Shown in pieces: positions 1,943 to 42,662 of a stretch of DNA of 64,000 nucleotides. The stretch comes from an uncultured Alphaproteobacteria bacterium. Lineage in GTDB: Bacteria; Pseudomonadota; Alphaproteobacteria; UBA7985; CAJQQZ01. Position numbers and translations under genes: made by a program. The DNA lies in contig CAJQQZ010000054.1 of the NCBI GenBank assembly GCA_905480575.1, positions 31,210-95,209 of the forward strand. The letters are read 5' to 3'. Below the pieces are notes generated by a model. It saw only the letters and a program-made list of their open reading frames with translations. It was not told the DNA's origin and searched no databases. Position 1 is the stretch's first letter, and each line of letters starts with the position of its first letter.

Positions 1943-2676
1943 TAGAGTTCATCCACACAAGTCGGGTAAATCGCTTGGAAACCTTCAGCGTATTTAGCAG
2001 GGCGACCGCCTGCTTGGCCGCCGGAGTTGCGACGGAAATGATTGCCGCGGTTTTCCGCAACGTTAGTGTAATAGTTCCAGAGGTGCTCCTGGCCTTGCAT
2101 ACATTCGATGGCCGCTCGTTTCTTGTCCCAGACATCAGTGATATCGAGGAACACGTTGGGCTTCCATCCCATCTGCTCGGTTTGATGAGGCTCAAAGAGG
2201 TAAAGCTGTGGAGCACCTAAGACCTTTTCACCGGGATTGTGGCCCCAAGCCTGCGCGATCATCCGACACTCCATGGCCACTTCAGTGGCGTACATGTGGT
2301 CAGTATTGTACGGGTCATATTGTGAGTGGGACATCATGAATTTTGGCTGTACCGCGCGAATGATATCAACCAGTTTGAACTTGGCTTCGCGGTCTAGATT
2401 GAGCGGGTAGTCGCCCAAGTCCATGAAAAGGATATCGTGGACATCGAGCGCTTTGGCCGCTGCTTCGGCTTCTTTACGGCGCTCTGTTTTGACTTTCTCT
2501 AGCGTACAACCCTCTTGTTTCCAGAGTTTGGCAGACTCACCGCGTTCACCATAAGAAAGACAAGCCACTGTAACGTCGTAGCCCTTGGCTTGATGCAAAG
2601 CGATGGCACCACCGGCGCGCCAAACAAAATCAGCGGCGTGGGCGGATATTACTAAAGCGGTTTTCTTGTCACTCAT
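1942..2676 (-). CDS. galB: 4-oxalomesaconate hydratase of the PIG-L/LmbE zinc-hydrolase family (GalB-type)
   Basis: 244 aa. The N-terminus [23 protein letters not shown] has the LmbE-like fold and resembles Pseudomonas putida GalB. Its stop overlaps the ligK start. Confidence 0.7.
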
Positions 2677-2721
2677 TTTAAACTCCTGAACATCAAATCT
2701 GTTCGTACTATGGCGGAGCGT

Positions 2722-2736
2722 ATAGGAAAATCCTAT
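2722..2736. promoter_or_regulatory. LysR-type T-N11-A operator (ATAGGAAAATCCTAT) in the divergent galB/lysR promoter region
   Basis: Perfect inverted repeat ATAGG-N5-CCTAT, 70 bp upstream of the LysR start and between divergently transcribed operons. Confidence 0.5.
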
Positions 2737-2805
2737 TTCAAAGTCGCGACAGGCTATAAGTTTTGGCTATATCCGGTTGCCAATTGACGGTAAACAGTTT
2801 GGGTA

Positions 2806-4056
2806 ATGGATCACCTTAAACTCAACATCCGGCATCTGAGAGCCTTTTGCGAAGTTGCTGAATGCCACTCGATCAGCTTGGCCTCTGGCCGCGTGCACAT
2901 TTCACAACCAGCAATTTCTCAAGCTTTGAGCAAGCTTGAAGCCCAGCTTGAAACCGCGCTGTTCCGTCGTCGCAATTCTGGTATGCATTTGACGGTATCG
3001 GGCGAGCGGTTTTTTGCACGTGCTTCAGCAGCACTTAATTTTTTGGAAGACGGTTGTTTGCTTGCCTTGAAGCAAGCAAAGGGACTGCGAACCAAAGAAA
3101 CCGCTGATTTTGTTCTGTTGATCACGACAGCGCAATTGCGCTCGCTTTTAGCACTAGCCGCGACGTCGAATTTTTCGTTGGCAGCAAGAGCCATATCAAT
3201 TTCTCAGCCCGCTTTGCACAGAACGGCGAGAGATCTTGAAAAAGTGACGGCGCTGGTTCTGTTTAAGACCGCTACGCAGGGGGTTGAATTAACACCAGCG
3301 GCAGAGGTGTTGGCACGATATGCCAACCTAGCTTTTGCTGAACTCAATCAAGCCTTGAGTGAAATCGCTGAATTGTTGGGTAAAGATCGAGGAACGCTGG
3401 TGATCGGTGCCTTACCTTTGGCCCGTTCATTCTTGCTGCCCAACACAATCAATGAGCTTCTTGAACATATCCCTGATGTGAACGTTTCAGTCGTGGACGG
3501 TCGTTATGATGATCTGCTCCATGGCTTGAGGTATGGAGAGCTGGATATGATGATCGGGGCGTTGAGAGATCCGCTGCCAGTCGATGATATCCGTCAGGAG
3601 GCTCTGTTCAGTGATCCGTTGGTTGTAGTGACGGATGTTAATCACCCTCTTCAGAATAAAGAGAATCAATTATCGCTCACTGAGTTAAACTCTTATCCTT
3701 GGATCGTTCCGAGAATAGGTACACCAACGAGAGCTTTTTTTCAGAAACTGTTTCAAGAAGCAGGCGCATTGGAGCCCAAAAGGTTGATTGAGACCAGCTC
3801 GATGGCCTTGGCACGAGGGCTCGTCATAGGCAGCGAACGACTGGCGATCATGTCCGCGCAACAGGTTCATTTTGAAATCAACCAGGGGCTCTTTGCTAAA
3901 CTGAATGTGGATACGGCGTCAACATCACGTGATATTGGCCTGACTTTACGCGCTAATTGGCGACCGACGGAAGCACAAGCTTTGCTCATAAAACTGTTGA
4001 AGCAATCGGTTGTTCGGGAATTTGGTAGCGGCGAAGGCTATTCAAAAAATGAATAG
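2806..4056 (+). CDS. LysR-family transcriptional regulator with tandem duplicated N-terminal HTH domains (416 aa)
   Basis: Residues about 7-66 and about 107-165 each carry a LysR HTH signature (…ISQPAISQALSKLE… and …ISQPALHRTARDLE…). A periplasmic-binding-fold effector domain follows. Confidence 0.8.
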   Translation: MDHLKLNIRHLRAFCEVAECHSISLASGRVHISQPAISQALSKLEAQLETALFRRRNSGMHLTVSGERFFARASAALNFLEDGCLLALKQAKGLRTKETADFVLLITTAQLRSLLALAATSNFSLAARAISISQPALHRTARDLEKVTALVLFKTATQGVELTPAAEVLARYANLAFAELNQALSEIAELLGKDRGTLVIGALPLARSFLLPNTINELLEHIPDVNVSVVDGRYDDLLHGLRYGELDMMIGALRDPLPVDDIRQEALFSDPLVVVTDVNHPLQNKENQLSLTELNSYPWIVPRIGTPTRAFFQKLFQEAGALEPKRLIETSSMALARGLVIGSERLAIMSAQQVHFEINQGLFAKLNVDTASTSRDIGLTLRANWRPTEAQALLIKLLKQSVVREFGSGEGYSKNE

Positions 4057-4129
4057 CTTAAACCTCAAACGAACTTTACGGGCTTGGCACTAGAGTGATA
4101 GGTCTTGAGAAATCAAATGAGAGTTTATC

Positions 4130-5023
4130 TTGAGCAATAGAAGACAAATCGCACTGATTGGATTTGGGGAAGCGGCAACTGCCTTTGTTAAAGGCTGGGG
4201 CCAGCGCTTGAACGCTAATTTCTCCGCCTACGATATCAAGACCGAAACAGAGGCAAGCAAAGCTAGGATGCTAGTGAATTACGCTGAGCATTCTGTAACA
4301 GCTGGTTGGTCAAACGCAGAAGCGGTCGAAGGTAAAGAAGCAGTTTTTTCTTTTGTAACGGCCGACCAATCTTTGAAGGCTGCTGTGGCTACCGGAAACG
4401 CTATCGAGAAGGATGCCTTTTTCTTTGACTGTAACTCTTGTTCACCCGGTACAAAAAAACAAGCAGCGGCTTTTATCGAAGCAGCCGGTGGGCGCTACGT
4501 TGATGTTGCTGTCATGGCACCAGTCTATCCGGCGTTGAACAAAACACCAGTTTCAATCTGTGGACCCCATGCGACGGAGGCCTTTGAACTCATGACGGCT
4601 TTGGATATGAATCCAACCTTGGTTGAGGGCGGTGTTGGCGTCGCCTCATCTACTAAGATGGTTCGTTCCATCATGATGAAGGGGCTGGAGGCGCTGATGA
4701 TGGAATGTGTCCTCGCTGGTCGAAAGGCTGGTGTTGACCGTGCGGTTCTAGAGTCGCTTGAGAAAACCTACCCTGGGTTTGGCTGGCAGGAAAAAGCCGC
4801 CTACATGGCGGAACGTGTCATGGTCCATGGCAAACGTAGAGCAGCAGAAATGCGAGAAGTCACCAAGACGGTCGAAGAACTTGGCCTGGTCAGCCGCATG
4901 GCTCCAGCCACAGTTGATTGGCAACAGGCTATCGGTGATCTTGAATTGGATCCAGCGGAAGACGATTACCCTTCACGGGCAGATAGAATATTGCAGGCTC
5001 TGCAGCCTGACAAAGAAAGGTAA
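4130..5023 (+). CDS. NAD(P)-binding oxidoreductase, 6PGDH-N-like / DUF1932 family
   Basis: Probable TTG start. Rossmann motif IALIGFGEAATAF at the N-terminus. Lies 4 nt upstream of ligA. Confidence 0.6.
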   Translation: MSNRRQIALIGFGEAATAFVKGWGQRLNANFSAYDIKTETEASKARMLVNYAEHSVTAGWSNAEAVEGKEAVFSFVTADQSLKAAVATGNAIEKDAFFFDCNSCSPGTKKQAAAFIEAAGGRYVDVAVMAPVYPALNKTPVSICGPHATEAFELMTALDMNPTLVEGGVGVASSTKMVRSIMMKGLEALMMECVLAGRKAGVDRAVLESLEKTYPGFGWQEKAAYMAERVMVHGKRRAAEMREVTKTVEELGLVSRMAPATVDWQQAIGDLELDPAEDDYPSRADRILQALQPDKER

Positions 5024-5027
5024 AGAT

Positions 5028-6259
<1,232 letters not shown>

Positions 6260-6265
6260 AAACAT

Positions 6266-7213
6266 ATGCGTATTTGTGTAGCGGGTGCCGCAGGTGCCTT
6301 CGGAAAGAAACACCTCGATGCTTTGAGCGCCATTGATGGTGTTGAAGTAACGTCAATCGTGGGACGAACAGAGGAAACAATTGTTCCTTTTGCCAAAGAA
6401 CGCGGTATTGGGCATGCCACCACCGATCTGAACGAAAGCTTAGCGCGTGATGATGTTGATGCTGTGATCCTGTCAACACCAACACAGGTGCATGCCGCCC
6501 AATCCATCGCTTGTATGAGAGCAGGTAAGCATGTGCTGTGCGAAATTCCCATGTCGGACAGTTTGGCTGATGCAGAAGAAGTGGTGAAGGTTCAGGCTGA
6601 AACCGGTGTTGTGGGTATGGCGGGTCAAGTTCGCCGCTTTAACCCTTCGCACCAATGGATTCACAACAAGGTCAAAGCTGGCGCGCTTAACATTCAGCAG
6701 ATGGATGTTCAGACTTACTTCTTCCGTAGAACCAATACCAATGCCGCTGGCGGTCCACGAAGTTGGACGGACCATCTTCTGTGGCACCATGCTTGCCACA
6801 CCGTTGATCTGTTCATGTATCAAACCGGCGATGTACCAACTGAGATTTTTGGCCTTCAGGGTCCCAAACATCCAGATCTTGGCATCGCCATGGATATGAC
6901 GATTGGTATGAAAAATCCATCCGGCGCTTTGTGCACCCTGTCTCTTTCATTCAATAACGATGGACCGTTCGGTACTTTCTTCCGATATATTTGTGATAAC
7001 GGGACCTATGTTGCTAGTTATGATGATCTGTATGACGGTTGCAATAACCCGATTGATTTGTCCGGCGTCGCTGTTTCCAACAACGGCATTGAGCTCATTG
7101 ATCGTGAATTCATTTCAGCTATCAGAGAGGAAAGAGAACCAAACGCTTCTTTCCGCCAAACACTGCCAGCGATGAAGGTTCTTCATCAGATTGAAAAGAC
7201 AATGGGGGCCTAA
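6266..7213 (+). CDS. ligC: 4-carboxy-2-hydroxymuconate-6-semialdehyde dehydrogenase (Gfo/Idh/MocA family, LigC)
   Basis: 315 aa. The N-terminus MRICVAGAAGAFGKKHLDAL and internal blocks (RRFNPSHQWIHNK, SWTDHLLWHHACHTVDLF, LSLSFNNDGPFGTFFRYICDNGT) match LigC along its length. Confidence 0.9.
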   Translation: MRICVAGAAGAFGKKHLDALSAIDGVEVTSIVGRTEETIVPFAKERGIGHATTDLNESLARDDVDAVILSTPTQVHAAQSIACMRAGKHVLCEIPMSDSLADAEEVVKVQAETGVVGMAGQVRRFNPSHQWIHNKVKAGALNIQQMDVQTYFFRRTNTNAAGGPRSWTDHLLWHHACHTVDLFMYQTGDVPTEIFGLQGPKHPDLGIAMDMTIGMKNPSGALCTLSLSFNNDGPFGTFFRYICDNGTYVASYDDLYDGCNNPIDLSGVAVSNNGIELIDREFISAIREEREPNASFRQTLPAMKVLHQIEKTMGA

Positions 7214-10200
7214 ATTGAAGTTCTTTTCCAGCAAAAACCGTCCTGTCCATCTCGGCGGACTGCCGCTGGAAAATCTTGCTCGAACTCAAGGCTCAATCGA
7301 ACTAGAGGGGGTGCCAGCGATGGTGCCCCTTTCTTTTTCCAGAGACAATGGTCCTCAATCGATTGTTGCTGCCATGGGTGAGTACCAGGCAATGTTGGAT
7401 GCCATCCGCATTGGTGTTGTTAACCCTAAGCGAGCTGAATGCCCGGACGACCTGACAGAGCGTGCCAACCATCTCAAAGGCTTCGGCTATTTTTGTGATG
7501 CCACGATGGTCGGTGTTTGCAAGCTGCCTGATGCGGCGCTACTGAAGCAACCGATCAGAAATCCAGCGATCGATCAGCTGGCTGAAGATTTGCGAACGAA
7601 ACAGACGACGACTTTGTCATCTGGCATCGATGTGATCATGGCTGACCTGAAGGAGTCGATGTCGGTAGCGCCTTCATCCATTGAGGGCCATAGCCATGCG
7701 GTTGTGTTCCTCTATGAATCGCCTAGGGAACCAGGACAGCAGGAGGACGGTTGTGAATGGATACAAGATGCTTTGGCCGAACGTTCGGCTCTTCGCGCTA
7801 ATGAAACTGCGTCGGTATTAGCCAACTATCTGCGTGTGCTTGGTTACCAGGCTCGCGCGCACAGTCTTTCGACCAGTGATGTGGATCTGAACAAGCTAGC
7901 GGTCGCAGCCGGTTTGGTGGTTTCGGAACAGGGAGAGATGACCGCTCCCTTTGTTGGTCGAAAATTCGGCCTGGCCGCACTGACCACTGATTTCGCTATG
8001 GCTGAGGATATGCCCCTGGCCAGTCAAGCCTTATCGAACACAAATCGAAAGCCGCCTTATGCCAAACGTGGCTTCATCCAAGGCCTTCATCCCTTTGAAA
8101 AGCTCAAACGTGTCGAGAAACCAACGACCTTCATTGATGAAGACCGGGTACCTCGTGTGCCTAAGCGTACCGATATGTTTGCGCGCTCCCTTTTCGGGGA
8201 CCTCGGTAAAGGCCCGCAAGAAAATGCCCGCAATGGCAAGTATGTTCTGAAAGCACCGACATCTGCATCTCAAAGACGGGCATTGGGCGCATTTATTCTT
8301 TTACAAGACGGCGAACCGGCACCTGAGATTGCTGAGTTCGCAACAGACGCAGAACGCAATGCCGCCAATGTCAAAGCTGCGGCCTACTTCCTGGGCTGCG
8401 ACGCTGTTGGCATTTCACGCTGCCCAGAGTGGACTTGGTATTCTCATAACGCCATTGGTGAGGATGTTACGCCGCCCCACGACCAGGCGATCTCGATCAT
8501 TATCGACCAGGGTTATGAGACCATGGAGGGGGCTTCGGGAGACGACTGGATTTCTTGCGCGCAATCCATGCGGGCCTATCTGCGCTTCTCCTTGTTAGGA
8601 GGCGTGATCGCCAAACATATCCGCAATCTAGGTTATTCTGCGAAGGCTCACACTGTTGTCGATGGTGACGTTCTCCAGCCACCCCTGTTACTTCTCTCAG
8701 GCATGGGCGAGGTCAGCCGAATTGGCGAGGTCATTCTCAATCCCTATCTGGGCCCAAGACTGAAGTCCGGTGTTGTCACAACAACCATGCCACTGGCGCA
8801 TGACAAACCGATTGATTTCGGCATGCAAACTTTCTGCGAAAGCTGTAACAAGTGCGCTCGGGAATGTCCGTCGGGCGCGATTACGGCTGGACCGAAGCTG
8901 ATGTTCAACGGTTACGAGATTTGGAAGTCTGATAGCCAACGCTGCACGACCTATCGCATCGGCACGGAAGGTGGCGCGATGTGCGGGCGGTGCATGAAAA
9001 CCTGCCCTTGGAACCTAGAAGGTTTGTTTGCAGAAGCGCCGTTCCGCTGGGCAGCCATGAACATGCCGAGTACTGCCCCCTTCCTTGCCAAGCTGGATGA
9101 TATGGTCGGTAACGGCGGTCTCAATCCAATAAAGAAGTGGTGGTGGGATCTAGAGGCTCAAGCGGATGGTCGTTTCCGACCCACAGAAAAAGAGGTTAAC
9201 GCTCGGGATTTACAAAAGGAGTTGGACCTCAAGTATGAGGATCAAACGTTGGCGGTTTATCCAGCCAATCTCGCGCCGCACCCTTGGCCCTTTCCATTCC
9301 TCATGGACCGCGAAAAAGGCATTGAGGCCTACCAAACTATGATCACCGCCGAAGAATACAAGCTTCGGCTTGCGCGCGGTGAGACGGAAGATTTGGCTCA
9401 TGAATATACCATCCCCGGTGATGCGCCGGTGGTAAGGGTTGTGATTTCAAAAGCTGAGAAAATGACGGACGATGTCACCAAATATGAGTTTCGTTCTGTC
9501 GATGGCAGTGACTTGCCGAAGTGGTCAGCAGGTGCCCATCTGGATATTGTTGTGGCGCCAGAATTCCTGCGCCAATATTCGATGTCAGGTGACCCCGCGG
9601 ACAAGTCCCTTTATCAGATTGGCGTCCTACGCGAAGATGAAGGCAAGGGCGGTTCAAAGCTGATGCATCGGATCTTTAGCGAAGGCCGTAAGATCTTTAT
9701 CTCCAAACCGATCAATCATTTCCCTTTAGATGAGGCTGCGACGAAGACCTTTTTGATGGGCGGCGGCATCGGTGTGACGCCAATGATTGCTATGGCCCAC
9801 CGGTTGCATCGCGTCGGGGCAGAATTCGAACTCCATTATTCAGCCAAATCAAGATCGACAGCTGGCTATCTGGAAGATCTCGAGGCCGTACCCTGGAAGG
9901 ATAAAGTCCACCTTCACTTCTCTGATGAGAACTCACGTGCAGATCTGCAGGCCGTTTTAGATGCCTTCAAGGAAGGGCATCATGTCTACACCTGCGGCCC
10001 AGACCGTTACATGAATTCGGTCATCGAGGCAGCGGAACAGCAGAATTTTCCAGAAGAAAACCGCCATCTGGAATATTTCTCGGTTCCAGAATTACCTGAC
10101 TATGAAAACCATAACTTCACTCTCAAACTGACGAAATCAGGCAAAACACTTGCGATAGCGGCGGACCAATCGATCACCGATGTCCTGAATGAAAGCGGCT

Positions 10201-10376
10201 ATGCAATCGACGTAAAGTGCTCCGATGGCATTTGTGGGGTTTGCCAATGTGGCTTGGTCGCTGGTGATGTCGAACACCGCGATTTTGTCTTGTCCAACAA
10301 GCAGCGGGAAAAGACGATCATTCTTTGTCAGTCCCGGGCTGCTGAACCGGATGGTGAAATAGAAATCGATCTTTGA
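7191..10376 (+). CDS. Self-sufficient (BhbA-like) catabolic reductive dehalogenase. The N-terminal RdhA module with two 4Fe-4S motifs is fused to a C-terminal FNR-like plus 2Fe-2S reductase of the phthalate dioxygenase reductase/VanB type
   Basis: 1061 aa. RdhA-type motifs CESCNKCARECP and CGRCMKTCPWN. The C-terminal 320 aa carry FNR-like FMN/NAD folds (GGGIGVTPMIAMAH, YTCGP) and a plant-type ferredoxin motif, CSDGICGVCQC. No TAT signal and no rdhB anchor. Overlaps the ligC stop by 23 nt (alternative TTG start at 7215). Confidence 0.75.
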   Translation: MKRQWGPKLKFFSSKNRPVHLGGLPLENLARTQGSIELEGVPAMVPLSFSRDNGPQSIVAAMGEYQAMLDAIRIGVVNPKRAECPDDLTERANHLKGFGYFCDATMVGVCKLPDAALLKQPIRNPAIDQLAEDLRTKQTTTLSSGIDVIMADLKESMSVAPSSIEGHSHAVVFLYESPREPGQQEDGCEWIQDALAERSALRANETASVLANYLRVLGYQARAHSLSTSDVDLNKLAVAAGLVVSEQGEMTAPFVGRKFGLAALTTDFAMAEDMPLASQALSNTNRKPPYAKRGFIQGLHPFEKLKRVEKPTTFIDEDRVPRVPKRTDMFARSLFGDLGKGPQENARNGKYVLKAPTSASQRRALGAFILLQDGEPAPEIAEFATDAERNAANVKAAAYFLGCDAVGISRCPEWTWYSHNAIGEDVTPPHDQAISIIIDQGYETMEGASGDDWISCAQSMRAYLRFSLLGGVIAKHIRNLGYSAKAHTVVDGDVLQPPLLLLSGMGEVSRIGEVILNPYLGPRLKSGVVTTTMPLAHDKPIDFGMQTFCESCNKCARECPSGAITAGPKLMFNGYEIWKSDSQRCTTYRIGTEGGAMCGRCMKTCPWNLEGLFAEAPFRWAAMNMPSTAPFLAKLDDMVGNGGLNPIKKWWWDLEAQADGRFRPTEKEVNARDLQKELDLKYEDQTLAVYPANLAPHPWPFPFLMDREKGIEAYQTMITAEEYKLRLARGETEDLAHEYTIPGDAPVVRVVISKAEKMTDDVTKYEFRSVDGSDLPKWSAGAHLDIVVAPEFLRQYSMSGDPADKSLYQIGVLREDEGKGGSKLMHRIFSEGRKIFISKPINHFPLDEAATKTFLMGGGIGVTPMIAMAHRLHRVGAEFELHYSAKSRSTAGYLEDLEAVPWKDKVHLHFSDENSRADLQAVLDAFKEGHHVYTCGPDRYMNSVIEAAEQQNFPEENRHLEYFSVPELPDYENHNFTLKLTKSGKTLAIAADQSITDVLNESGYAIDVKCSDGICGVCQCGLVAGDVEHRDFVLSNKQREKTIILCQSRAAEPDGEIEIDL

Positions 10377-10455
10377 TCACTTGGTGCTGAACTATTCGCT
10401 ACAGCTTTTGGCTCGCTTCGGTTAACATTTCTGGACGAACCAAAAGGAAGATTTG

Positions 10456-11256
10456 ATGACCGATAAACTGTTGGTGGAGAAGCACGGACACATTGCTGTC
10501 CTGACACTCAACATGCCGGACCTACGCAACCCGATCACCGACCAAGATGTTGTTGAGGCTCTGGTCGTCGCTTGCGAAGACGTTTCCCAGGATATGTCTA
10601 TACGCTGCGTGATTTTGACGGGCGCGGGCAAAGGTTTTTCCTCCGGTGGCAATCTTAAACACATGCAAAAAAAGTCAGGCATTTTCGGCGGTGATGCTTT
10701 GGCGGTCAAAGACGGCTACCGCAATGGCATTCAGCGCGTGCCAAAGGCGCTTTGGAATCTAGAGGTTCCTGTCATTGCTGCAGTTAACGGTCCTGCGTAC
10801 GGAGCAGGTTGTGATCTCGCAATGATGGCGGACATCCGCATTGCGTCAACTAAAGCGACTTTTGCAGAAAATTTCGTAAGGGTGGGTATCATTCCCGGCG
10901 ACGGCGGATCCTGGCTGTTGCCTCGGCAAATAGGCTTGAGCCGAGCCGCTGAAATGACCTTTACCGCAGAACCAGTGAAGGCCGACAAAGCTCTCGAATG
11001 GGGTTTGGTTTCTCAGGTCGTTCAGCCGGAAGATCTTATGACGGCTGCGTTGGAGCTGGCTGGTCGGATCGCCAAAAATCCACCAAAGCAGTTGCGGCTA
11101 TCAAAACGTTTGATGCGTGAAGCCTTGCATATGAAGCTGGAGCCTCTGTTGGAAATGGCCGCTGCCTATCAGGGTGCCTGTCACCAAACCAACGATCACG
11201 AAGAGGCGGTCAATTCCTTGATTGAAAAGCGCGATGCAGTCTTCAACGGTGACTAA
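10456..11256 (+). CDS. Enoyl-CoA hydratase/isomerase (crotonase) family protein
   Basis: Crotonase fold with GAGKGFSSGGNL oxyanion-hole region. RBS AAGGAAG upstream of ATG 10456. Confidence 0.8.
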   Translation: MTDKLLVEKHGHIAVLTLNMPDLRNPITDQDVVEALVVACEDVSQDMSIRCVILTGAGKGFSSGGNLKHMQKKSGIFGGDALAVKDGYRNGIQRVPKALWNLEVPVIAAVNGPAYGAGCDLAMMADIRIASTKATFAENFVRVGIIPGDGGSWLLPRQIGLSRAAEMTFTAEPVKADKALEWGLVSQVVQPEDLMTAALELAGRIAKNPPKQLRLSKRLMREALHMKLEPLLEMAAAYQGACHQTNDHEEAVNSLIEKRDAVFNGD

Positions 11257-11274
11257 AATCTGAGGAACGAACTT

Positions 11275-11895
11275 ATGACAAAGCAGACTAACTCAGCCTT
11301 GATTCTCATCGATATCCAAAATGATTTTTGCCCCGGTGGGAAGTTGGCCGTTGTTGATGGCGATCAGGTGGTAGCGGTTGCCAACAAGCTGCAGGTGCAG
11401 TTTGAGACAACGATCCTCACACAGGATTGGCATCCGGCTGACCACAAATCCTTTGCTTCAAACCAGAGCGGTGAAGCGTTCACCTTGATTGAAATGCCTT
11501 ATGGTTCTCAAGTTCTTTGGCCGGATCATTGTATTCAAGGTAGCCAAGGGGCAGCTTTTCATAAAGACCTAGAAACAGATGGGGCTGACTTGGTTATTCG
11601 TAAAGGTTTCCGTCCAGAAATTGATTCATATTCAGCCTTTTTCGAAAACGACCATGAAACTTCGACGGGGTTGGCCGGTTATCTGCGCGAACGCGCCGTC
11701 ACTAATCTTATGATGGCTGGCTTGGCCACAGATTTCTGTGTTCGCTATTCAGCGGTCGACGCTGCCAAACTGGGCTTTGAGGTCACAGTTGTGGAAGACG
11801 GATGCCGCGCGATCGACCTTGATGGTTCCTTGGACGCTGCCTGGGAAGAAATGTTGTCGTTGGGCATCAAGCGGATTCAGTCAGGAGATCTTTAA
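11275..11895 (+). CDS. Isochorismatase-family hydrolase, nicotinamidase/pyrazinamidase-like (PncA-like)
   Basis: ALILIDIQNDFCPGG N-terminus and catalytic Cys region ATDFCVRYS. 206 aa. Confidence 0.7.
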   Translation: MTKQTNSALILIDIQNDFCPGGKLAVVDGDQVVAVANKLQVQFETTILTQDWHPADHKSFASNQSGEAFTLIEMPYGSQVLWPDHCIQGSQGAAFHKDLETDGADLVIRKGFRPEIDSYSAFFENDHETSTGLAGYLRERAVTNLMMAGLATDFCVRYSAVDAAKLGFEVTVVEDGCRAIDLDGSLDAAWEEMLSLGIKRIQSGDL

Positions 11896-11899
11896 GCCT

Positions 11900-13243
11900 G
11901 TGCTGAGCGTTCTGAAAACCTCCTCCTTCCGTCACCTGTTCATGGCTCAGGTTGTAGCCCTGCTTGGCACTGGTCTACTGACGGTAGCGCTTGGCTTGCT
12001 GGCTTATGAGTTGGCCGGCGACTCTGCAGGATTGGTTCTGGGCACGGCCTATACGATTAAGATGGTGGCTTATGTTGGTTTGGCACCTATTGCTGCTGTG
12101 GTCACCTCTCGGATGAACCGAAAATCGGTTTTGATTTGTGCGGACTTGTGCCGGGCAGGGGTGGCGCTATGTTTGCCTTTCATTGATGCGGTTTGGCAGA
12201 TCTATATATTGATCTTTGTGCTCCAAGCAGCTTCCGCCACCTTCACACCGACCTTCCAGGCGGTCATTCCCGATATTCTGAAAGATGAAAAAGACTACAC
12301 CAGCGCTTTATCACTTTCCCGCTTGGCCTATGACATCGAGAACTTAGTGTCCCCCGCTTTAGCCGGACTGTTACTCACGGTGATCTCGTTCCATTGGTTG
12401 TTCTTCGGCACAGTATTCGGGTTTGTCGTTTCTGCTTTGCTCGTGCTTGTAACTGTGATCCCCCCCTTGCTCAAAAAAGCAGAAGAAGGGACATTTTGGA
12501 ACCGTGTGACGCGCGGCAGTAAAATCTATCTCGCGACACCGAGGCTACGAGGTTTGCTTTCGCTGAATCTCGCCATTGCTGCGACAGGATCAATGGTACT
12601 CGTGAATACAATCGTCTTTGTTCGTTCTAGTTTCGAAGGGTCAGAGCAAGATGTCGCCATTGTCTTTGCTTGTTATGGTGCAGGTTCAATGATTGCGGCT
12701 TTTGCTCTGCCATCTGTGCTTGAGCGGATGCGCGATTGGCCAGTGATGATGGTCGGTGGCCTTGGATCGACGGTTGTCACTTTGACTTTTGCGCTGATCT
12801 TCTTGACCAAAGGATTGCCGAGTTGGCCGGTTTTTCTCGCTACTTGGGCTGTGCTTGGGCTATTGGGCTCCCTAGTGATGACACCCTCGGGTCGCTTGCT
12901 GCGCCGGTCGGCACACAGTGAAGATAGGCCTGCGCTCTTTGCGGCACAGTTCGCTCTCTCTCATGCCTGTTGGCTGATTGCTTATCCAACTGCGGGATAC
13001 TTCGGTAAATGGTTTGGATTGGGCGCGACGATGGTTGTTCTCGCTGGTCTCGCACTATTGGGTTGTTGGGCCGTCTACTGGTTTTGGCCATCAAAACCAC
13101 AACAGGTACTGGAACACAGCCATGATGACCTGCCACCTGACCATCCGCATTTGGCCGATGCTGTTGTCAAAAACGGAAGGAGCGTTCATAGACATTACTT
13201 TGTAATCGACGATGAACATCGCGTTTGGCCCACGCAGGGTTAG
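11900..13243 (+). CDS. MFS transporter with His-rich C-terminal tail
   Basis: Twelve predicted hydrophobic segments. GTG start 4 nt after the upstream stop, with AGGAG upstream. The track ORF 11738.. extends spuriously into the upstream gene. Confidence 0.7.
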   Translation: MLSVLKTSSFRHLFMAQVVALLGTGLLTVALGLLAYELAGDSAGLVLGTAYTIKMVAYVGLAPIAAVVTSRMNRKSVLICADLCRAGVALCLPFIDAVWQIYILIFVLQAASATFTPTFQAVIPDILKDEKDYTSALSLSRLAYDIENLVSPALAGLLLTVISFHWLFFGTVFGFVVSALLVLVTVIPPLLKKAEEGTFWNRVTRGSKIYLATPRLRGLLSLNLAIAATGSMVLVNTIVFVRSSFEGSEQDVAIVFACYGAGSMIAAFALPSVLERMRDWPVMMVGGLGSTVVTLTFALIFLTKGLPSWPVFLATWAVLGLLGSLVMTPSGRLLRRSAHSEDRPALFAAQFALSHACWLIAYPTAGYFGKWFGLGATMVVLAGLALLGCWAVYWFWPSKPQQVLEHSHDDLPPDHPHLADAVVKNGRSVHRHYFVIDDEHRVWPTQG

Positions 13244-13366
13244 TTTTTCAGATGAACGAAAACCTTTCTAGATTTGAAATTTGGATGCTGAGACCCCTAT
13301 CTTTTTAATGGTGCTTGCCAACAGTTGTTGGTAGTTTTTCAGTTTTCTTGAACAGGCGTCTAAACC

Positions 13367-15013
13367 ATGACTCATGAAGCGCGAACGGCACTACAAGATC
13401 TCGACACCGCGGATCTAAAACAAGAACTGAGCAGGGCACTCAATGCCGCTCACCTTTTGGTGGGGAACATGAAAAGCGAGTTGGCGGAACGCAAGCTCTC
13501 ACCGGCTGACCAATATGTCCGACACGGCTTTGCTTGGTACGCCGCCTATGTTGAAACATTGGCCGCAACATTTCTTTGGATGGAAGAATTGGAGGCCAGT
13601 GGTCGCTTGGGCCGACTAGAGCGGCTTATTGGGATAGCGCTATTCGGTGATTATCTTACCCAATTGGCTCACGGTATTGCCATGAGCCAGGACGAGGTGA
13701 TTAGACCGGAAAGGCTTGGCTCGACTGAGGCCATGACTGCTTATCTTGCGACAGAATCGGTTCAGGCTTGTCGTCAATCTAGTACCGCTGATCTTGCCAA
13801 AGAAATCGTCGATCTTTGTGCTGACCAAGGTGCTTATGGCAACCAGGGACTGGACGAAACCTTTGCAATGATTGCTGATCAATTCCACGCTTTCGTTGAT
13901 GAAAATGTGAGTGAGCATGCGCAAAGTTGGCACTTAGAAAACCAGTTGATCCCAGACGGCCTGGTTCGCCAGCTCGCTGATCTCGGCGTCTTTGGTTTGA
14001 CGATTAGCGAGGACTTTGGCGGCACAGGTCTTGGCAAATTGGCTATGTGTATTGTGACCGAAGAGCTGTCGCGCGGTTATATCGGTGTTGGCAGTTTGGG
14101 CACCCGCTCAGAGATCGCAGGTGAACTTATCCAGATTGGTGGGACAGAAGAACAAAAGGCCAAGTACTTGCCAGCTATTGCATCTGGTGAAATTTTGCCC
14201 GTGGCCGTTTTTACGGAGCCTAACACTGGGTCTGACTTGGCATCGCTTCGAACAAGAGCGGAGAAGATTGACGGTCGTTACAAAATAACTGGTAACAAAA
14301 CCTGGATTACGCACGCCGGTCGTTCAGACCTTATGACTTTGCTGGTACGGACAAATCCGGATGAGCCAGGTCATCGCGGTCTGACGATGCTGTTGGCAGA
14401 AAAACAACGCGGCACGGATGAAGAACCTTTCCCAACGCCTGGAATGTCTGGAGGAGAAATTCATGTTCTCGGCTATCGCGGCATGAAGGAATATGAAATT
14501 GCTTTTGACGGGTTTGAGGTTCCAATAAACGCTGCCCTTGGCGGTGAAGAGGGTCAAGGCTTTCGCCAGTTGATGCAAACTTTCGAGGCAGCCCGTATTC
14601 AAACCGCCGCTCGTGCCATGGGCGTAGCCGTCAACGCAATGGAAGTATCCTTCGCTTACGCCCAAGACCGTGTCCAATTCGGCAAACCGATCATCGAGAA
14701 CGAACGCATTTACGGCAAGCTGGCGCGCATGGTTGTTGAGATCATGGGTGTACGTCAATTGACATACGCTGCCGCCCGCAAAAAAGACCAAGGCGGTCGT
14801 TGTGACGTGGAGGCGGGCATGGCCAAGTTGTTGGCGGCTCGACTGGCTTGGTCAGCGGCGGATAATGGTCTCCAGATTCATGGCGGCAATGGCTACTCTT
14901 TGGAATTCCCAATTTCCCGCATTCTTTGCGACGCACGCATTCTCAACATCTTCGAAGGTGCCGCTGAAATGCAAGCAGAGATCATAGCGCGTGGTTTGTT
15001 GCCGAAGATTTAA
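13367..15013 (+). CDS. Acyl-CoA dehydrogenase with an approximately 170-aa N-terminal extension
   Basis: ACAD core (FGLTISEDFGGTG, TEPNTGSDLASL, C-terminal IFEGAAEMQAEIIARG). 548 aa. Confidence 0.8.
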   Translation: MTHEARTALQDLDTADLKQELSRALNAAHLLVGNMKSELAERKLSPADQYVRHGFAWYAAYVETLAATFLWMEELEASGRLGRLERLIGIALFGDYLTQLAHGIAMSQDEVIRPERLGSTEAMTAYLATESVQACRQSSTADLAKEIVDLCADQGAYGNQGLDETFAMIADQFHAFVDENVSEHAQSWHLENQLIPDGLVRQLADLGVFGLTISEDFGGTGLGKLAMCIVTEELSRGYIGVGSLGTRSEIAGELIQIGGTEEQKAKYLPAIASGEILPVAVFTEPNTGSDLASLRTRAEKIDGRYKITGNKTWITHAGRSDLMTLLVRTNPDEPGHRGLTMLLAEKQRGTDEEPFPTPGMSGGEIHVLGYRGMKEYEIAFDGFEVPINAALGGEEGQGFRQLMQTFEAARIQTAARAMGVAVNAMEVSFAYAQDRVQFGKPIIENERIYGKLARMVVEIMGVRQLTYAAARKKDQGGRCDVEAGMAKLLAARLAWSAADNGLQIHGGNGYSLEFPISRILCDARILNIFEGAAEMQAEIIARGLLPKI

Positions 15014-15026
15014 ATCTCTTCGCTAT

Positions 15027-16208
15027 CTACTTCGATTGAAAAGCTGAAGAACAAGCAACTTGTGTCTTCATCGCTGCTAGATAAAGATCATGAAAATAAC
15101 GCATAGCATGTTCTGAAATGTCATGGGCTTCAGGATCGGTCACATACCAGCCTTGTTGGTAACCACGTTGATGCATGCCACGTTGAACGTTTTCACAAAG
15201 CGCTTTGTCTTCCGCTGAGACCGTTGGGAACCATTCGGCACGTTGATTGTGGCGCTGTTCCATTTCTGGGTCTGTTGGAGCAGGAGGCTTCAGAGTTACC
15301 GATTTTCGCATAGTGCTGTCAGGCGTGACGGGGGTTACTGTTGATAGGTAGAAACCTTTGGCACCGGGGAATTGCCCAATAAGAGTGTTAGGGAAAAGCC
15401 ACCAAAAATGCCCGGTTGTGATGTCGTGATTGCGGTCCAGCGGAAAGGCTTTGTTTTCTGCTTTATCGTCTGTTGGTGCGATCTGAAAAGTGTAGTTCTG
15501 ATTGAGAGCGAATGACGATTTGCCGAGATCCATCATGTCATTGAATTGATCATGGGCGTTCAAGCAGTGATGGCATTCCAAATAATTATCGACCAGGACT
15601 TTCCAATTGGCCTCGCAAGGATAGTCGATGTCTAATTGAACGGTTTCTTCAGGTCGCATAGATGGGAGATCAGGCTCAATCGATAATATTTGTTCCTCAA
15701 GCCCTGGAGCGAAAACAGAGAGCGGTTGAGCCTGTGGGTCTAAGTTGATGAAAATGAAATCAACTAGGTGATCCACACGAATTTCCGACAAACAGATTTC
15801 GTCGTTTGATGGACCGGCAAGTGTCTCCGAGCTGCGGGCACCGATGCGTTTACCATCGAGGGCAAAGGTCCAAGCGTGATAGGGGCAAGTAATTCGGCTT
15901 TTCTTGCCTGATCCTTCCACCAGTTGATGGCCTCGGTGGGGGCAGACATTGTAGAAGGCGCGGATTTTATCTTCACGATCTTTGACCAAAAATAAGTTTT
16001 GATCGAAGATTTTGATCGTAACGAAGGAGCCTGGGTCTGACAGTTCGCTGGCATGACAAGCATAAAGCCAAGAGCGGAAGAAGACCTTTTCCTTCTCTTG
16101 GTTGAGCTCATCCTTGGAGATGTAATAGATTGCCTCGAGAGTCCTTTTACGGTCCGTTTCAATCGTTTGGCAGTCTAGTTGATCAAGCATCGCTTTATCT
16201 CTCACCAA
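15027..16208 (-). CDS. Rieske non-heme iron oxygenase alpha subunit (aromatic ring-hydroxylating / demethylase type)
   Basis: Rieske motif CPHRGHQL…CPYHAW and mononuclear iron motif DNYLECHHCLNAH. 393 aa. No adjacent reductase or ferredoxin gene. Confidence 0.8.
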   Translation of the reverse strand: MVRDKAMLDQLDCQTIETDRKRTLEAIYYISKDELNQEKEKVFFRSWLYACHASELSDPGSFVTIKIFDQNLFLVKDREDKIRAFYNVCPHRGHQLVEGSGKKSRITCPYHAWTFALDGKRIGARSSETLAGPSNDEICLSEIRVDHLVDFIFINLDPQAQPLSVFAPGLEEQILSIEPDLPSMRPEETVQLDIDYPCEANWKVLVDNYLECHHCLNAHDQFNDMMDLGKSSFALNQNYTFQIAPTDDKAENKAFPLDRNHDITTGHFWWLFPNTLIGQFPGAKGFYLSTVTPVTPDSTMRKSVTLKPPAPTDPEMEQRHNQRAEWFPTVSAEDKALCENVQRGMHQRGYQQGWYVTDPEAHDISEHAMRYFHDLYLAAMKTQVACSSAFQSK

Positions 16209-16390
16209 CGTTTGGTGCAGTTAATCACAGATTGGGCGGATGACCAGCGAAAAATACACAGGCCGTTTCGCCGCCTCTTTTCCTATATCGTACGCCCCAT
16301 TGTCGGAGGCATACCATGCGGTGCTGTCGTTGACCGTAACGTGAATTGTAGAGAACAGAACCCAGTGCTAATTCTTAGTCAAATTCACCA

Positions 16391-16873
16391 TTGTTACGAA
16401 ATGGGTTTGCCATGACCGAAAATTCGCTTAACCGCCGCTCCGCGCTGTTGATGGCTGCTGGTGCCATGACGACTTTGATTTTCCCAACGCTCGGTTTTGC
16501 CAAGAGCCTCGTTTCAAAAACCAAAGCCGGTGTGGCCATCAAGGGTCATGACACTACTGCCTATTTTCAGAAGGGCTCTCATGGCAAAGGCAGCAAGACT
16601 CATGTCGTTGAATGGGAAGGTGCGAAGTGGCGTTTTGCTTCAGCGGAAGAGGCCGCTTTGTTCAAAACAAACCCTGCTGCTTACACGCCGCAGTTTTGTG
16701 GATTTTGCACCCGGGCGATGTCTTTTGGATCAAAGGTCCATTCCAATCCAAAGGTCTGGCGCATTTACAAGGACAAACTCTATTTGTTCGCGGCACCCAA
16801 AGGCGGTAAGTTCTTTGACAAAGGTCAGGATAAAATGATCGAGAAGGCCCAAGCTAATTGGGACAACCTTTAA
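16391..16873 (+). CDS. YHS-domain protein with twin-arginine signal
   Basis: NRRSALLMAAGA TAT-like signal. YHS/TRASH-like region GHDTTAYF…CGFC. Alternative start at MTENS (16412). Confidence 0.6.
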   Translation: MLRNGFAMTENSLNRRSALLMAAGAMTTLIFPTLGFAKSLVSKTKAGVAIKGHDTTAYFQKGSHGKGSKTHVVEWEGAKWRFASAEEAALFKTNPAAYTPQFCGFCTRAMSFGSKVHSNPKVWRIYKDKLYLFAAPKGGKFFDKGQDKMIEKAQANWDNL

Positions 16874-25616: not shown

Positions 25617-27122
25617 ATGGATCGTCGTCAATTATTGCAAGGTTTTGCATTGTCTTTGGCCGCTGGAATGGTGACTGGTTCACCAGTCCTGGCTGCCGGA
25701 GACAACTGGAAAGAAGACTTTACCCGGGCACTCAAGCAAAAACCTTGGTTATTAGGTTACAAGGGCGTGGATCAAAACTTCAAAAAGACCAATCTAAAAA
25801 TCGACGGCAAGTTGCCGGAAAACTTGAAAGGTATCTTCTACCGCAATGGTCCCGCGCGTCACGAGGTTGGTGACCTTCGTTATCGGCATTGGTTTGATGG
25901 TGACGGTATGATCCATGCTTTTAACTTCGATGGTGAAAGTGTGACCCATCACGGGCGTTTTGTCGACACGATCAAAACTGAAAAGGAAACAGAGGCGGGT
26001 AGAGCGCTGTTCCAAACTTTCGGAACAGCAGGTTCCTCTCTCACATCTGGGTGCAGTGCCGATGAGGTTAACGTGGCCAACATCTCTGTTATTAAACATA
26101 ACGGGGAACTCTTGGCGCTTTGGGAAGGTGGGTCGGCTTATCGCCTTGACGGAGAAACGCTTGAAACACTTGGTCTCAAAACTTGGACAGAGGAGACAGC
26201 AGGTCTGCCGTTCAGTGCACATCCCAGAGTCGACCAAGACGGGACGCTGTGGAATTTCGGCTACGCGCCCATATTCGGCGCGTTGATTGTCTACCGAATT
26301 AGCCCTACCGGACAACTCATTGACAGGGCGCTGGTACAGAAGCCTGCGACGCCAATGGTGCATGATTTTCTGATCACTGAGAACCATCTTATTCTCATTC
26401 TACCACCTTACCACTTTGACAACGCGAGCGAAGGTGCCTTCGTTGATCGCTTTAATTGGTCGCCAGAGAAAGGCGGGCGTGCCTTGATCATTGATAAAAA
26501 TAATCTGGCGGCTCAGCACGAGATCGAGCTGCCACCGTTTTGGGTGTTTCACTTTGCTAACGCTTTTGAGGACAGCAGCGGTGACATCTGTTTTGATGCG
26601 CCGATCTATCAAACACCAGATGTCATGACCTCGAGTTTCAGAGAAATCATGCGTGGCAATGAGGTTGGGAGCGACAGTGCTCAACTCATGAAATGTCGCT
26701 TAAATCCTTTAACCGGCAACTTTGACATGACGGAGATAGAAGAGGCGGTCGCCTCTGAGTTCCCTAGGATCGACCAGCGCATGCAAGGTCGCCGTCACCG
26801 TTTTACGGCAGTTATGCGCGGACAAGAGGGTGCTGCCTACAAAGGGATCAATCAGCTTATGTCGATCGACCATCAACAACAAACCACTGAAAGCTATACT
26901 TTCCCAGCCACAGAGATGGCGGAAGAGCATGTCTTTGTTCCTGACCCCGACAGTATAGAGGAGGGCAAAGGATGGTTGATGGGAACGTCGCTTGATTACA
27001 AGCGAGGCAAGTCAGCGCTCAATCTGTTTGATGCTCAGCGGGTTTCAGATGGACCGGTTGCCCGTATGGAAATGGACTACGCAATACCGCTCGGTTTGCA
27101 TGGCAATTTCTACAGCAGTTAG
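25617..27122 (+). CDS. Carotenoid oxygenase (CCD/RPE65) family dioxygenase with TAT signal peptide
   Basis: MDRRQLLQGFALSLAAG…AAG twin-arginine signal. CCO-family blocks (FYRNGPARHEVGDLRYRHWFDGDGMIHAF, HDF, FHFANAFE). Confidence 0.8.
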   Translation: MDRRQLLQGFALSLAAGMVTGSPVLAAGDNWKEDFTRALKQKPWLLGYKGVDQNFKKTNLKIDGKLPENLKGIFYRNGPARHEVGDLRYRHWFDGDGMIHAFNFDGESVTHHGRFVDTIKTEKETEAGRALFQTFGTAGSSLTSGCSADEVNVANISVIKHNGELLALWEGGSAYRLDGETLETLGLKTWTEETAGLPFSAHPRVDQDGTLWNFGYAPIFGALIVYRISPTGQLIDRALVQKPATPMVHDFLITENHLILILPPYHFDNASEGAFVDRFNWSPEKGGRALIIDKNNLAAQHEIELPPFWVFHFANAFEDSSGDICFDAPIYQTPDVMTSSFREIMRGNEVGSDSAQLMKCRLNPLTGNFDMTEIEEAVASEFPRIDQRMQGRRHRFTAVMRGQEGAAYKGINQLMSIDHQQQTTESYTFPATEMAEEHVFVPDPDSIEEGKGWLMGTSLDYKRGKSALNLFDAQRVSDGPVARMEMDYAIPLGLHGNFYSS

Positions 27123-41962: not shown

Positions 41963-42074
41963 GGTATTCTCCCTCGAGTCTCAAGATATTTGGAAGAATC
42001 GAAGAATCCAAGACCCCTTGTGGAGTTGTGGAACCAGTTAGACGCTAGATTTCTGTGGAAGACTTGTATAGTTT

Positions 42075-42260
42075 GCATTTTGCAAGGTGCTGGTCCCGCA
42101 AGGGGCCGGATAATTGGGAAGTTGGTACAGGTTTCACCCCTAAGCCAACGCTGCCCCCGCAACGGTAGAGAAGAGAGCTTGTCACTAAGCCACTGGGGTA
42201 ACCTGGGAAGGCGACAGGCGAGAGTTAAAAACTCACTTCTGAGCCCGGAAACCAGCCTTG
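42075..42260 (+). ncRNA. Cobalamin (B12) riboswitch
   Basis: Conserved elements in the RF00174 order: AGGTGC (42085), AATTGGGAAG, GCTGCCCCCGCAACGG, GCCACTG (42189-42195), GGGAAGGC (42205-42212), and the B12 box GAGCCCGGAAACCAGCC (42241-42257; 14 of 16 to AGYCMGGAGACCKGCC). Confidence 0.75.
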
Positions 42261-42383
42261 GAATTTGCTTTGGATGTTGCGGGCGGCGACTGAGGGCTGT
42301 CCGCACTCATTCGTGGCTGCTGACATACCTCTTCGTTTTCTCACAATTTCTTCTTTTGAATCCACGCAAGCGGGAGAATTGCG

Positions 42384-42662
42384 ATGTTGTTGACGACGTT
42401 GATTAAGGGTATGAACGAGCCAAAGGTTGCCGCTCAGTTTTTACTGACGGATGAAAAGGGTCGTACGCTCACGGCAGAAGAGGCCTTTTTTGGTTGGTTG
42501 ATGGCGTTACCCCATGAGACAACGCCACAGGTGGAAGCGCGATCAGCTTTGCAGACACTCGAAGCGCTTCCAAGCCCAAGCCAGAATCTCAAAGGGCTAA
42601 TTTTACTTTTCAAGCAGGCAAGTTTGCCGCCAGCCAGACGTCGGCGCGTTAGTCTTCACTAA
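42384..42662 (+). CDS. 92-aa hypothetical protein downstream of the cobalamin riboswitch
   Basis: GGGAG RBS 8 nt upstream of the ATG. No recognisable family. The 3' end overlaps a convergent minus-strand gene. Confidence 0.35.
   Translation: MLLTTLIKGMNEPKVAAQFLLTDEKGRTLTAEEAFFGWLMALPHETTPQVEARSALQTLEALPSPSQNLKGLILLFKQASLPPARRRRVSLH

Follow-up and report, generated by a model that had tools for sequence, protein, structure and literature searches.

The stretch of DNA that was analysed (64,000 nucleotides, hereafter the window) contains a gene, rdhA, which is located immediately behind the ligABC genes for protocatechuate 4,5-cleavage and encodes a putative reductive dehalogenase (RdhA) fused to a reductase of the phthalate dioxygenase reductase type (PDR, also abbreviated as PDOR). 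The rdhA product is very probably a cytoplasmic, oxygen-tolerant, self-sufficient catabolic RdhA of the type represented by BhbA and JtRdhA, and its debrominated product probably feeds protocatechuate 4,5-cleavage. This explanation is based on homology, domain order, conservation of the cofactor ligands and catalytic residues, purifying selection and gene order. The type of enzyme is already known, well populated and partly characterised, and the locus adds to it the coupling with ligABC and a few substitutions in the substrate pocket. Self-sufficient catabolic RdhAs have been known since BhbA (2013), and one member was characterised kinetically and spectroscopically in 2023.

The rdhA gene and the parts of its product are located as follows, with amino acid residues (aa) numbered from TTG 7215, the most likely start codon.

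7215..10376, + strand: rdhA-PDOR fusion gene, 1053 aa, TTG start, stop codon included (open reading frame and alignment of the start)
7215..8084, + strand: N-terminal vestigial (non-cobalamin) RdhA-like domain, aa ~1-290 (alignment with NpRdhA; limits approximate)
8000..8020, + strand: site of an 18-residue deletion, after PLASQA, aa ~267-272 (alignments)
8112..8819, + strand: predicted cobalamin-binding catalytic core, aa ~300-535, with F322, S451, M452, Y455 and K517 (alignment with NpRdhA; R581 is in the Fe-S region)
8835..9008, + strand: two [4Fe-4S] cluster motifs (Pfam Fer4_7 and Fer4_16; conserved Cys residues)
9414..10373, + strand: PDR-like module for flavin mononucleotide (FMN), NAD(P)H and [2Fe-2S] (2PIA, CYP116B, Pfam and motifs)

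The NCBIfam model for reductive dehalogenases, TIGR02486, which the initial annotation named as a check, matches the window protein with 209.1 bits, against a cut-off of 160.35 (E 1.4e-61). Alignment with two characterised enzymes, NpRdhA of Nitratireductor pacificus pht-3B and BhbA, was proposed there as well, and both alignments support the assignment. NpRdhA (4RAS, 6ZXU and related entries) is the best match among the solved structures, with E 2.8e-149 and two stretches that span aa ~1-716. BhbA, which is encoded by plasmid pBHB of Comamonas sp. 7D-2 and is found by tblastn of plasmids, is 49.9% identical over 100% of the query, or 51% identical over 1046 aligned positions; its entry, WP_015585978, is the accession given for BhbA by Fisher et al. 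(PMC10463259). When a model predicted with AlphaFold2, which served fold assignment only owing to its low confidence around the cofactor sites, is used in a fold search, the NpRdhA chains are the top 14 matches (template modelling (TM) score 0.83-0.85 relative to the target, E ~1e-53), and they are followed by CYP116B and PDR. The fold alignment with NpRdhA contains ~750 columns and covers almost the whole NpRdhA chain. These scores are well above what chance would give, and they bear out the RdhA-like core of ~700 aa with two 4Fe-4S motifs that was noted earlier; its length is ~725 aa.

The residues known to be important in NpRdhA are all conserved. F322, S451, M452, Y455, K517 and R581 of the window protein correspond to F291, S422, M423, Y426, K488 and R552 of NpRdhA in the HMMER alignment with 4RAS, whose chain numbering is the same as the published numbering of NpRdhA. 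These NpRdhA residues are reported as substrate-binding or catalytic (PMC7565698, PMC10463259). The six residues are invariant in alignments of 16 and of 61 homologues. The eight Cys residues of the two 4Fe-4S clusters (C541, C544, C547 and C551; C577, C590, C593 and C597) are kept in all fused and unfused relatives compared. The first motif, CESCNKCARECP, is located at aa 541-552 (nt 8835-8870), and the second, CGRCMKTCPWN, at aa 590-600 (nt 8982-9014).

The N-terminal ~290 residues match the N-terminal domain of NpRdhA, at its residues 2-101 and then from residue 112 onward. The concept of a vestigial N-terminal domain that has lost cobalamin binding is taken from PMC10463259. An insert of ~42-45 residues (aa ~106-157) is located within this domain, between the positions of NpRdhA residues 101 and 112. 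All fused proteins compared have this insert, as does the unfused 737-aa protein P0126, and the NpRdhA-like unfused representatives lack it.

The C-terminal part is a complete reductase module, in agreement with the PDR/VanB-type module (FNR-like domain plus plant-type 2Fe-2S ferredoxin) that the initial annotation described. Residues 3-315 of phthalate dioxygenase reductase (2PIA) align with the C-terminus with E 2.5e-54, the reductase domains of self-sufficient CYP116B P450s match the same part with E 1e-62 and 5e-55, and Fer2 and DmmA-like_N are found in this module as Pfam matches. The FMN motif RQYS (aa 786-789) and the NAD(P)H motif GGGIGVTP (aa 849-856) are conserved across the fused relatives, including BhbA. 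The Cys residues of the 2Fe-2S cluster (C1002, C1007, C1010 and C1038) have the same spacing as those of PDR and are kept in all fused relatives, and the plant-type motif CSDGICGVCQC is located at aa 1002-1012 (nt 10218-10250). All three motifs quoted earlier are thus present in the reading frame. The resemblance to PDR (2PIA) and to the CYP116B reductase (6KBH, 6LAA) extends end to end over the C-terminal ~320 residues, with the order FMN-NAD-[2Fe-2S]. However, these reductases pass electrons to Rieske oxygenases or to the haem of a P450, whereas the acceptor of the window module would be the chain of Fe-S clusters and cobalamin.

The protein is assigned to the cytoplasmic class, as claimed earlier, by its sequence, its hydropathy and its flanking genes. 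The first 60 residues contain no RR motif of a twin-arginine translocation (TAT) signal, and no membrane helix is found, the maximum hydropathy over 19 residues (KD19) being 1.18. No rdhB anchor gene is present, since all flanking open reading frames (ORFs) fall in other families. There is no room for such a gene, because ligC ends 1 nt upstream and the enoyl-CoA hydratase gene starts ~77 nt downstream.

The + strand contains an unbroken ORF at 7191-10376, with 1061 codons when counted from the first TTG. This ORF, which the initial annotation took as the gene, is real and uninterrupted, and only its start is shifted. The start was assigned with the closest relatives, L003 (85% identical) and L001 (83-84% identical). 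TTG 7191 is not kept in these two relatives (L001 has ATA), and a 1-nt indel shifts the upstream frame. In the junction alignment of the window, L001 and L003, TTG 7215 is kept, 1-2 nt past the ligC stop codon and behind a GGGGG/GGGAG sequence, and the substitutions relative to L001 and L003 are mostly found at third codon positions 3' of this codon. It also aligns with Met1 of NpRdhA. The true start of rdhA is most likely TTG 7215, because this codon is conserved in all three sequences, follows GGGGG/GGGAG and matches NpRdhA Met1, whereas TTG 7191 is not conserved. The gene would then span 7215-10376 and encode 1053 aa. The public gene calls P0001 (1018 aa) and P0002 (1019 aa; an 84% identical relative) begin at the internal ATG 7320, and, as judged from the sequences, these entries are ~35 residues too short, with loss of the conserved N-terminus. 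A 12-bp hairpin at 7305-7332 overlies this internal ATG.

Because the synonymous sites are saturated in the comparison with the 84-85% identical relatives, the proportions of nonsynonymous (pN) and synonymous (pS) differences are given in place of dN/dS. The values of pN are 0.10 for the whole gene and 0.04 for the catalytic core, and pS is ~0.8 (saturated). rdhA is therefore under purifying selection, with a low pN at saturated synonymous sites. The GC content of rdhA is 0.525 and its GC content at third codon positions (GC3) is 0.547, as compared with 0.49-0.51 and 0.46-0.55 for the lig genes, and a compositional signal of horizontal transfer, looked for in these GC and GC3 values, is not found.

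The window protein may be compared with the characterised enzymes by their published descriptions. The catabolic (cytosolic) RdhAs are divided into the 'self-sufficient' (PDOR-fused) and 'truncated' types, and most are fused (PMC10463259, PMC12219181). JtRdhA is the self-sufficient catabolic RdhA of Jhaorihella thermophila (WP_104007082; Fisher et al. 2023, PMC10463259). It was purified with its cofactors, and it removes bromine or iodine from ortho-halophenols, even under air, in a reaction that is coupled 1:1 to the oxidation of NADPH; 3,5-dibromo-4-hydroxybenzoate and 3-bromo-4-hydroxyphenylacetate serve it best, and the chlorinated analogues act only as inhibitors (PMC10463259). NAD(P)H-driven dehalogenation that needs no partner protein has been shown for JtRdhA only (PMC10463259). 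The view of the initial annotation that only a few members are characterised is outdated in this respect, since purification and kinetic study of a fused member, JtRdhA, have been reported (PMC10463259). The window protein and JtRdhA are both from marine alphaproteobacteria, and they are alike in the lack of a TAT signal, the vestigial duplicated cobalamin domain, the Y/K/R core, the two [4Fe-4S] clusters and the C-terminal PDOR with FMN and 2Fe-2S. The fusion-specific 'insert' of the JtRdhA paper is probably the segment at aa ~106-157 of the window protein.

BhbA is the 3,5-dibromo-4-hydroxybenzoate debrominase of bromoxynil catabolism. It is a full-length collinear fusion, shares all catalytic residues and cofactor ligands with the window protein, and is encoded downstream of protocatechuate 4,5-dioxygenase genes, as in the window. 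In contrast, bhbA is carried by a betaproteobacterial IncP plasmid, in a pollutant-degradation island flanked by insertion sequences, whereas the window cluster is on a contig of at least 64 kb from an uncultured marine alphaproteobacterium, has housekeeping neighbours, and includes the lower-pathway genes and ligC. The window locus also lacks the adjacent gene for a solute-binding protein, and the pocket residues F/F/D/S/V/A/S of BhbA are M/F/N/Y/V/L/C in the window protein. NpRdhA (4RAS, 6ZXU, 6ZXX, 6ZY1) has the same fold (TM 0.84), the same six residues and the vestigial N-terminal domain. However, it is of the 'truncated' type, which lacks the reductase module and needs separate redox partners (PMC10463259), and it also lacks the ~45-aa insert. 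It is ~37% identical in the fold alignment, and the NpRdhA-like unfused representatives are 41-42% identical. Ros_A3X954, a marine Roseobacter debrominase, was considered as a comparator and set aside as a different, short type of reductive dehalogenase.

A reaction sequence may be proposed from these homologues. A hydride of NADPH would be transferred to FMN in the C-terminal PDR module, from which single electrons would reach the base-off cobalamin of the catalytic core by way of [2Fe-2S] and the two [4Fe-4S] clusters. In the bound state, the phenolate of an ortho-halogenated phenolic substrate would be held by Ser451, Lys517 and Arg581, with the halogen placed on the cobalt. Reductive cleavage of the C-Br (or C-I) bond would follow, with a proton supplied by the Tyr455-Lys517 dyad. 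The likely substrates would be brominated acids of the 4-hydroxybenzoate type, for example 3,5-dibromo- or 3-bromo-4-hydroxybenzoate, and possibly 5-bromoprotocatechuate. As suggested by gene order, the debrominated product would probably enter protocatechuate 4,5-cleavage, either directly or after 3-hydroxylation.

The genes around rdhA are as follows.

217-1278, - strand: PrpF/LigU-type tautomerase (Pfam; limits taken from the identical contig L002)
1271-1942, - strand: RraA/LigK-type aldolase (Pfam; limits from L002)
1942-2676, - strand: PIG-L-family protein (Pfam; limits from L002)
2806-4056, + strand: LysR-type regulator (Pfam)
4130-5023, + strand: DUF1932/NAD_binding_2 oxidoreductase, which opens the ligABC-rdhA unit (Pfam; order the same in L001, L002, L003 and Paramylibacter kogurei L084)
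5028-5417, + strand: ligA, protocatechuate 4,5-dioxygenase alpha subunit (NCBIfam PCA_ligA, 157 bits)
5417-6259, + strand: ligB, protocatechuate 4,5-dioxygenase beta subunit (PRK13366, 498 bits; Pfam LigB)
6266-7213, + strand: ligC, 4-carboxy-2-hydroxymuconate-6-semialdehyde (CHMS) dehydrogenase (GFO_IDH_MocA and OxRdtase_C; JGI names of LigC homologues)
10456-11256, + strand: crotonase-family enoyl-CoA hydratase (Pfam, NCBIfam)
11275-11895, + strand: nicotinamidase PncA (Pfam, NCBIfam)
11900-13243, + strand: major facilitator superfamily (MFS) transporter (Pfam, NCBIfam)
13367-15013, + strand: acyl-CoA dehydrogenase (Pfam, NCBIfam)

The aerobic aromatic-catabolic context claimed for rdhA is confirmed by this protocatechuate 4,5-cleavage cluster, as identified with Pfam and NCBIfam. 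The rdhA gene begins 1 nt after the ligC stop codon, with a TAA-A-TTG junction that is conserved in L001 and L003. The debrominated product probably enters the protocatechuate pathway, because rdhA is located 1 nt behind ligC in a ligABC operon controlled by a LysR-type regulator. The whole arrangement recurs in L001, L002, L003 and metagenome contigs with an identical LigC, several of which are from the SOLA coastal series. At least 21 public contigs, of up to 605 kb, encode LigC (6266-7213) with 100% identity, and several of these are from SOLA coastal metagenome series. The source organism thus recurs in marine samples, since the identical LigC is found on many contigs (L087, L088 and L089 among them).

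In Paramylibacter kogurei, the LigC of which is 80% identical, the genes of the cluster and their order are unchanged, except that the operon ends at ligC and is followed by unrelated genes of the opposite strand. Another relative likewise has ligABC without rdhA. By these comparisons, rdhA has been added at the 3' end of the operon in a lineage-specific manner. No transposase is found among the ORFs scanned in the window, and the housekeeping genes pntAB, pdxJ, truA and fmt adjoin the cluster.

Downstream of rdhA, the crotonase-PncA-MFS-acyl-CoA dehydrogenase block is kept in L001, L003 and L089. The genes at 10456..15013 may belong to the same transcription unit as rdhA. When 2600-16400 is scanned for promoters and terminators, the counts are at the level of shuffled sequences, and no terminator is found between rdhA and the hydratase gene.

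The fused form is widespread. Protein search gives more than 3,500 proteins at E <= 1e-20, and the best 120 matches, with few exceptions, have lengths of 1,018-1,129 aa and identities of 68-84%, with many named reductive dehalogenase by NCBI or JGI. The Rhodobacteraceae homologues in general are 64-73% identical to the window protein. In a scan with one genome per species, a relative is encoded in at least 585 genomes, and the best 80 of these are nearly all marine Alphaproteobacteria, plus some Granulosicoccaceae; Ruegeria, Roseibium, Oricola, Nioella, Silicimonas, Shimia, HIMB11, Planktomarina and Puniceispirillaceae are represented among the 80. Upon clustering at 50% identity, the window protein falls in one large cluster with the mainstream fused proteins (representative P0121, 63% identical), and the only others nearby are two more full-length fused clusters and a handful of unfused ones of ~700 aa. 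Given at least 585 species genomes and routine annotation, the fused form can no longer be called poorly described in its distribution, as it was earlier.

The gene context of the fused form was compared at 82 loci, for which five ORFs on each side of rdhA were clustered. Genes of the lig pathway are found within 10 kb only in L001, L002, L003 and one metagenome-assembled genome of Oricola (L008). In the last of these, the order is rdhA, DUF1932, type I extradiol dioxygenase, PIG-L, ligK and ligU, and on pBHB it is ligA, ligB, binding protein and bhbA. The association of fused rdhA with extradiol cleavage of protocatechuate-like compounds in three different architectures (the window lineage, L008 and pBHB) supports a functional link in these lineages, but not in the whole family. 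No neighbour is universal among the 82 loci. The largest neighbour clusters stem from ~18-20 loci of the same gene order, apparently mostly of Ruegeria (L012, L022, L025-L028 and others; position ~10001-13204), in which rdhA is flanked by a divergent LysR gene and is followed by the flavin adenine dinucleotide, 2Fe-2S and Mo subunits of the xanthine dehydrogenase family, a DAO-type oxidoreductase and a short-chain dehydrogenase/reductase. This block suggests a different pathway context for fused rdhA. Thus, fused homologues are common in marine Alphaproteobacteria and most of them are located in uninformative neighbourhoods, and the window locus is among the few in which gene order ties a fused RdhA to a defined pathway, protocatechuate 4,5-cleavage. 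It is a reasonable candidate for asking whether pelagic bacteria mineralise natural bromophenolic acids. No literature that joins RdhA, protocatechuate and Roseobacter was found in the set of papers searched.

Several observations weigh against the assignment of the rdhA product as a debrominase that supplies protocatechuate 4,5-cleavage. As for the enzyme, the Pfam model PF13486 (Dehalogenase), the second family model named in the initial annotation, gives no match to the window protein at E <= 1. No homologue among the 120 listed has this model in its precomputed Pfam list, not even those named reductive dehalogenase by NCBI, and the miss is therefore probably a limit of the coverage of the model for this clade. 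PF13486 is a diagnostic model and does not define the family. The AlphaFold2 model, built from 61 homologues, is of moderate quality, with a mean predicted confidence (pLDDT) of 72 and a pTM of 0.66, and is weakest around the cofactor sites. A segment of 18 residues that every other fused or unfused relative in the alignments contains is missing from the window protein and P0002, and these two differ from the other fused relatives aligned at two sites in the pocket: Cys448 replaces Val at the position of NpRdhA A419, and Val344-Leu345 replace Ala-Arg at the positions of NpRdhA P311/M312. As for the pathway, 77 of the 82 related loci have no lig genes within 10 kb, indicating that the link to ring cleavage is not family-wide. 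Co-transcription of ligABC and rdhA is suggested by gene spacing alone. Finally, no pobA or other gene for a 4-hydroxybenzoate 3-hydroxylase is found among the ~58 ORFs scanned in the window (mainly those of at least 150 aa), so that the conversion of 4-hydroxybenzoate to protocatechuate lacks a local gene among them. A FAD_binding_3 gene is present in the lig cluster of the relative L085.

The subclade features may be reflected in substrate preference. NpRdhA A419 lines the pocket for the second bromine, and the A419M mutation shifts the preference toward the mono-brominated substrate (PMC7565698). The substrate preference of the window protein could differ from that of JtRdhA, because two pocket positions are changed and the 18-residue segment is missing. 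L003 is absent from these alignments and probably shares the subclade features, because its gene has 1054 codons. The subclade supplies natural variants at the equivalents of A419 and P311, the former of which tunes the preference for mono- versus di-brominated substrates by mutagenesis.

A more specific history is possible, and is proposed tentatively. In a recurrent, uncultured marine lineage of alphaproteobacteria, a self-sufficient RdhA may have been captured at the 3' end of a ligABC operon controlled by a LigR-type regulator, apparently with translational coupling to ligC, and may then have diverged, through the 18-residue deletion and Cys448/Val344/Leu345, into a dedicated enzyme for natural brominated algal compounds of the protocatechuate or 4-hydroxybenzoate type. 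If so, debromination and ring cleavage would form one co-regulated module, possibly with 5-bromoprotocatechuate as a substrate.

It is rather doubtful that the enzyme is a genuine self-sufficient debrominase of which the position behind ligC is incidental, so that it would not feed protocatechuate cleavage but would detoxify bromophenols in general, or would serve another pathway such as the catabolism of 4-hydroxyphenylacetate or the downstream CoA-dependent genes. The 77 loci without lig genes nearby and the absence of any family-wide neighbour are what would be expected of such an enzyme, but the 1-2 nt junction between ligC and rdhA is kept in three diverged relatives, and the association with extradiol cleavage and the oxalomesaconate pathway recurs in the three architectures mentioned above. 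The substrate range of JtRdhA is broad, with 3-bromo-4-hydroxyphenylacetate as good as the dibromobenzoate, and an HpaB-type 4-hydroxyphenylacetate 3-hydroxylase is encoded in the window (61808-63253, + strand); however, this hpaB gene is ~50 kb away from rdhA. Genes for enoyl-CoA hydratase and acyl-CoA dehydrogenase, located downstream of rdhA on the same strand, also count in favour of this alternative.

It is very improbable that the protein has the RdhA fold but catalyses another cobalamin- and Fe-S-dependent reduction, for example that of an aromatic compound or a ring-cleavage intermediate, rather than dehalogenation. The class III cobalamin enzymes also include QueG, which is not a dehalogenase, and the residues C448, V344 and L345 in the pocket, together with the deletion, are changed in the subclade. 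In contrast, the full set of halophenol-binding and proton-donor residues is invariant, and clustering at 50% identity places the window protein together with the mainstream fused proteins (P0121, 63%). QueG (epoxyqueuosine reductase) itself is rejected as an assignment, because its model TIGR00276 gives only 23.5 bits against a cut-off of 200 and covers the Fe-S region alone. The initial annotation regarded assignment to QueG, or loss of the cobalamin-core residues, as evidence against an RdhA; neither is the case, since the QueG score is far below the cut-off and the NpRdhA residues are all kept. A respiratory (energy-conserving) RdhA of the PceA/CprA type is effectively refuted, because the homology to PceA is distant and limited to ~200 residues (E 3.9e-30), whereas the TAT signal, a transmembrane segment and the cognate rdhB gene are all missing, an NAD(P)H reductase is fused, and the host context is aerobic, with oxygenases throughout the window.

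The explanation of the rdhA product as a self-sufficient catabolic debrominase linked to protocatechuate 4,5-cleavage is therefore preferred, and the remaining observations concern the genes of this cluster and of the window. The PIG-L-family gene at 1942-2676 stands at the place of the oxalomesaconate hydratase and presumably encodes a GalB-type (oxalomesaconate) hydratase; its product is 96-97% identical in the 84-85% identical relatives and 82% identical in Oricola. The Amidohydro_2 gene of the relatives lies beyond the LigU-type tautomerase gene of the divergent arm. The LysR-type regulator is unusually long (416 aa), with two Pfam HTH_1 (helix-turn-helix) stretches ahead of the substrate-binding domain, and this long form is common to the relatives (407 aa in L001 and 411 aa in P. 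kogurei). The DUF1932/NAD_binding_2 gene is also the first gene of the P. kogurei operon (L084 5868-6737), and a 41%-identical DUF1932 homologue is located directly behind rdhA in Oricola (L008 13232-14113). By its recurrence, this oxidoreductase looks like a conserved member of the marine protocatechuate 4,5-cleavage clusters.

Elsewhere in the window, a lone Rieske oxygenase alpha subunit is encoded at 15027-16208 (- strand), convergent with the genes on the rdhA side, and an oxygenase of the RPE65 family (carotenoid/stilbene-cleaving type) is encoded at 25617-27122 (+ strand). A full-length cobalamin riboswitch (RF00174, 100.8 bits) is located at 42068-42274 (+ strand). It is followed on its own strand only by a 92-aa ORF at 42384-42662 (+ strand), which has no Pfam match, and beyond this ORF are convergent genes of the opposite strand, of which that at 42995-44047 encodes a DUF2332 protein. 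A tungsten-type aldehyde:ferredoxin oxidoreductase is encoded at 54240-55955 (+ strand), a surprising enzyme for a marine alphaproteobacterium that appears to be aerobic.

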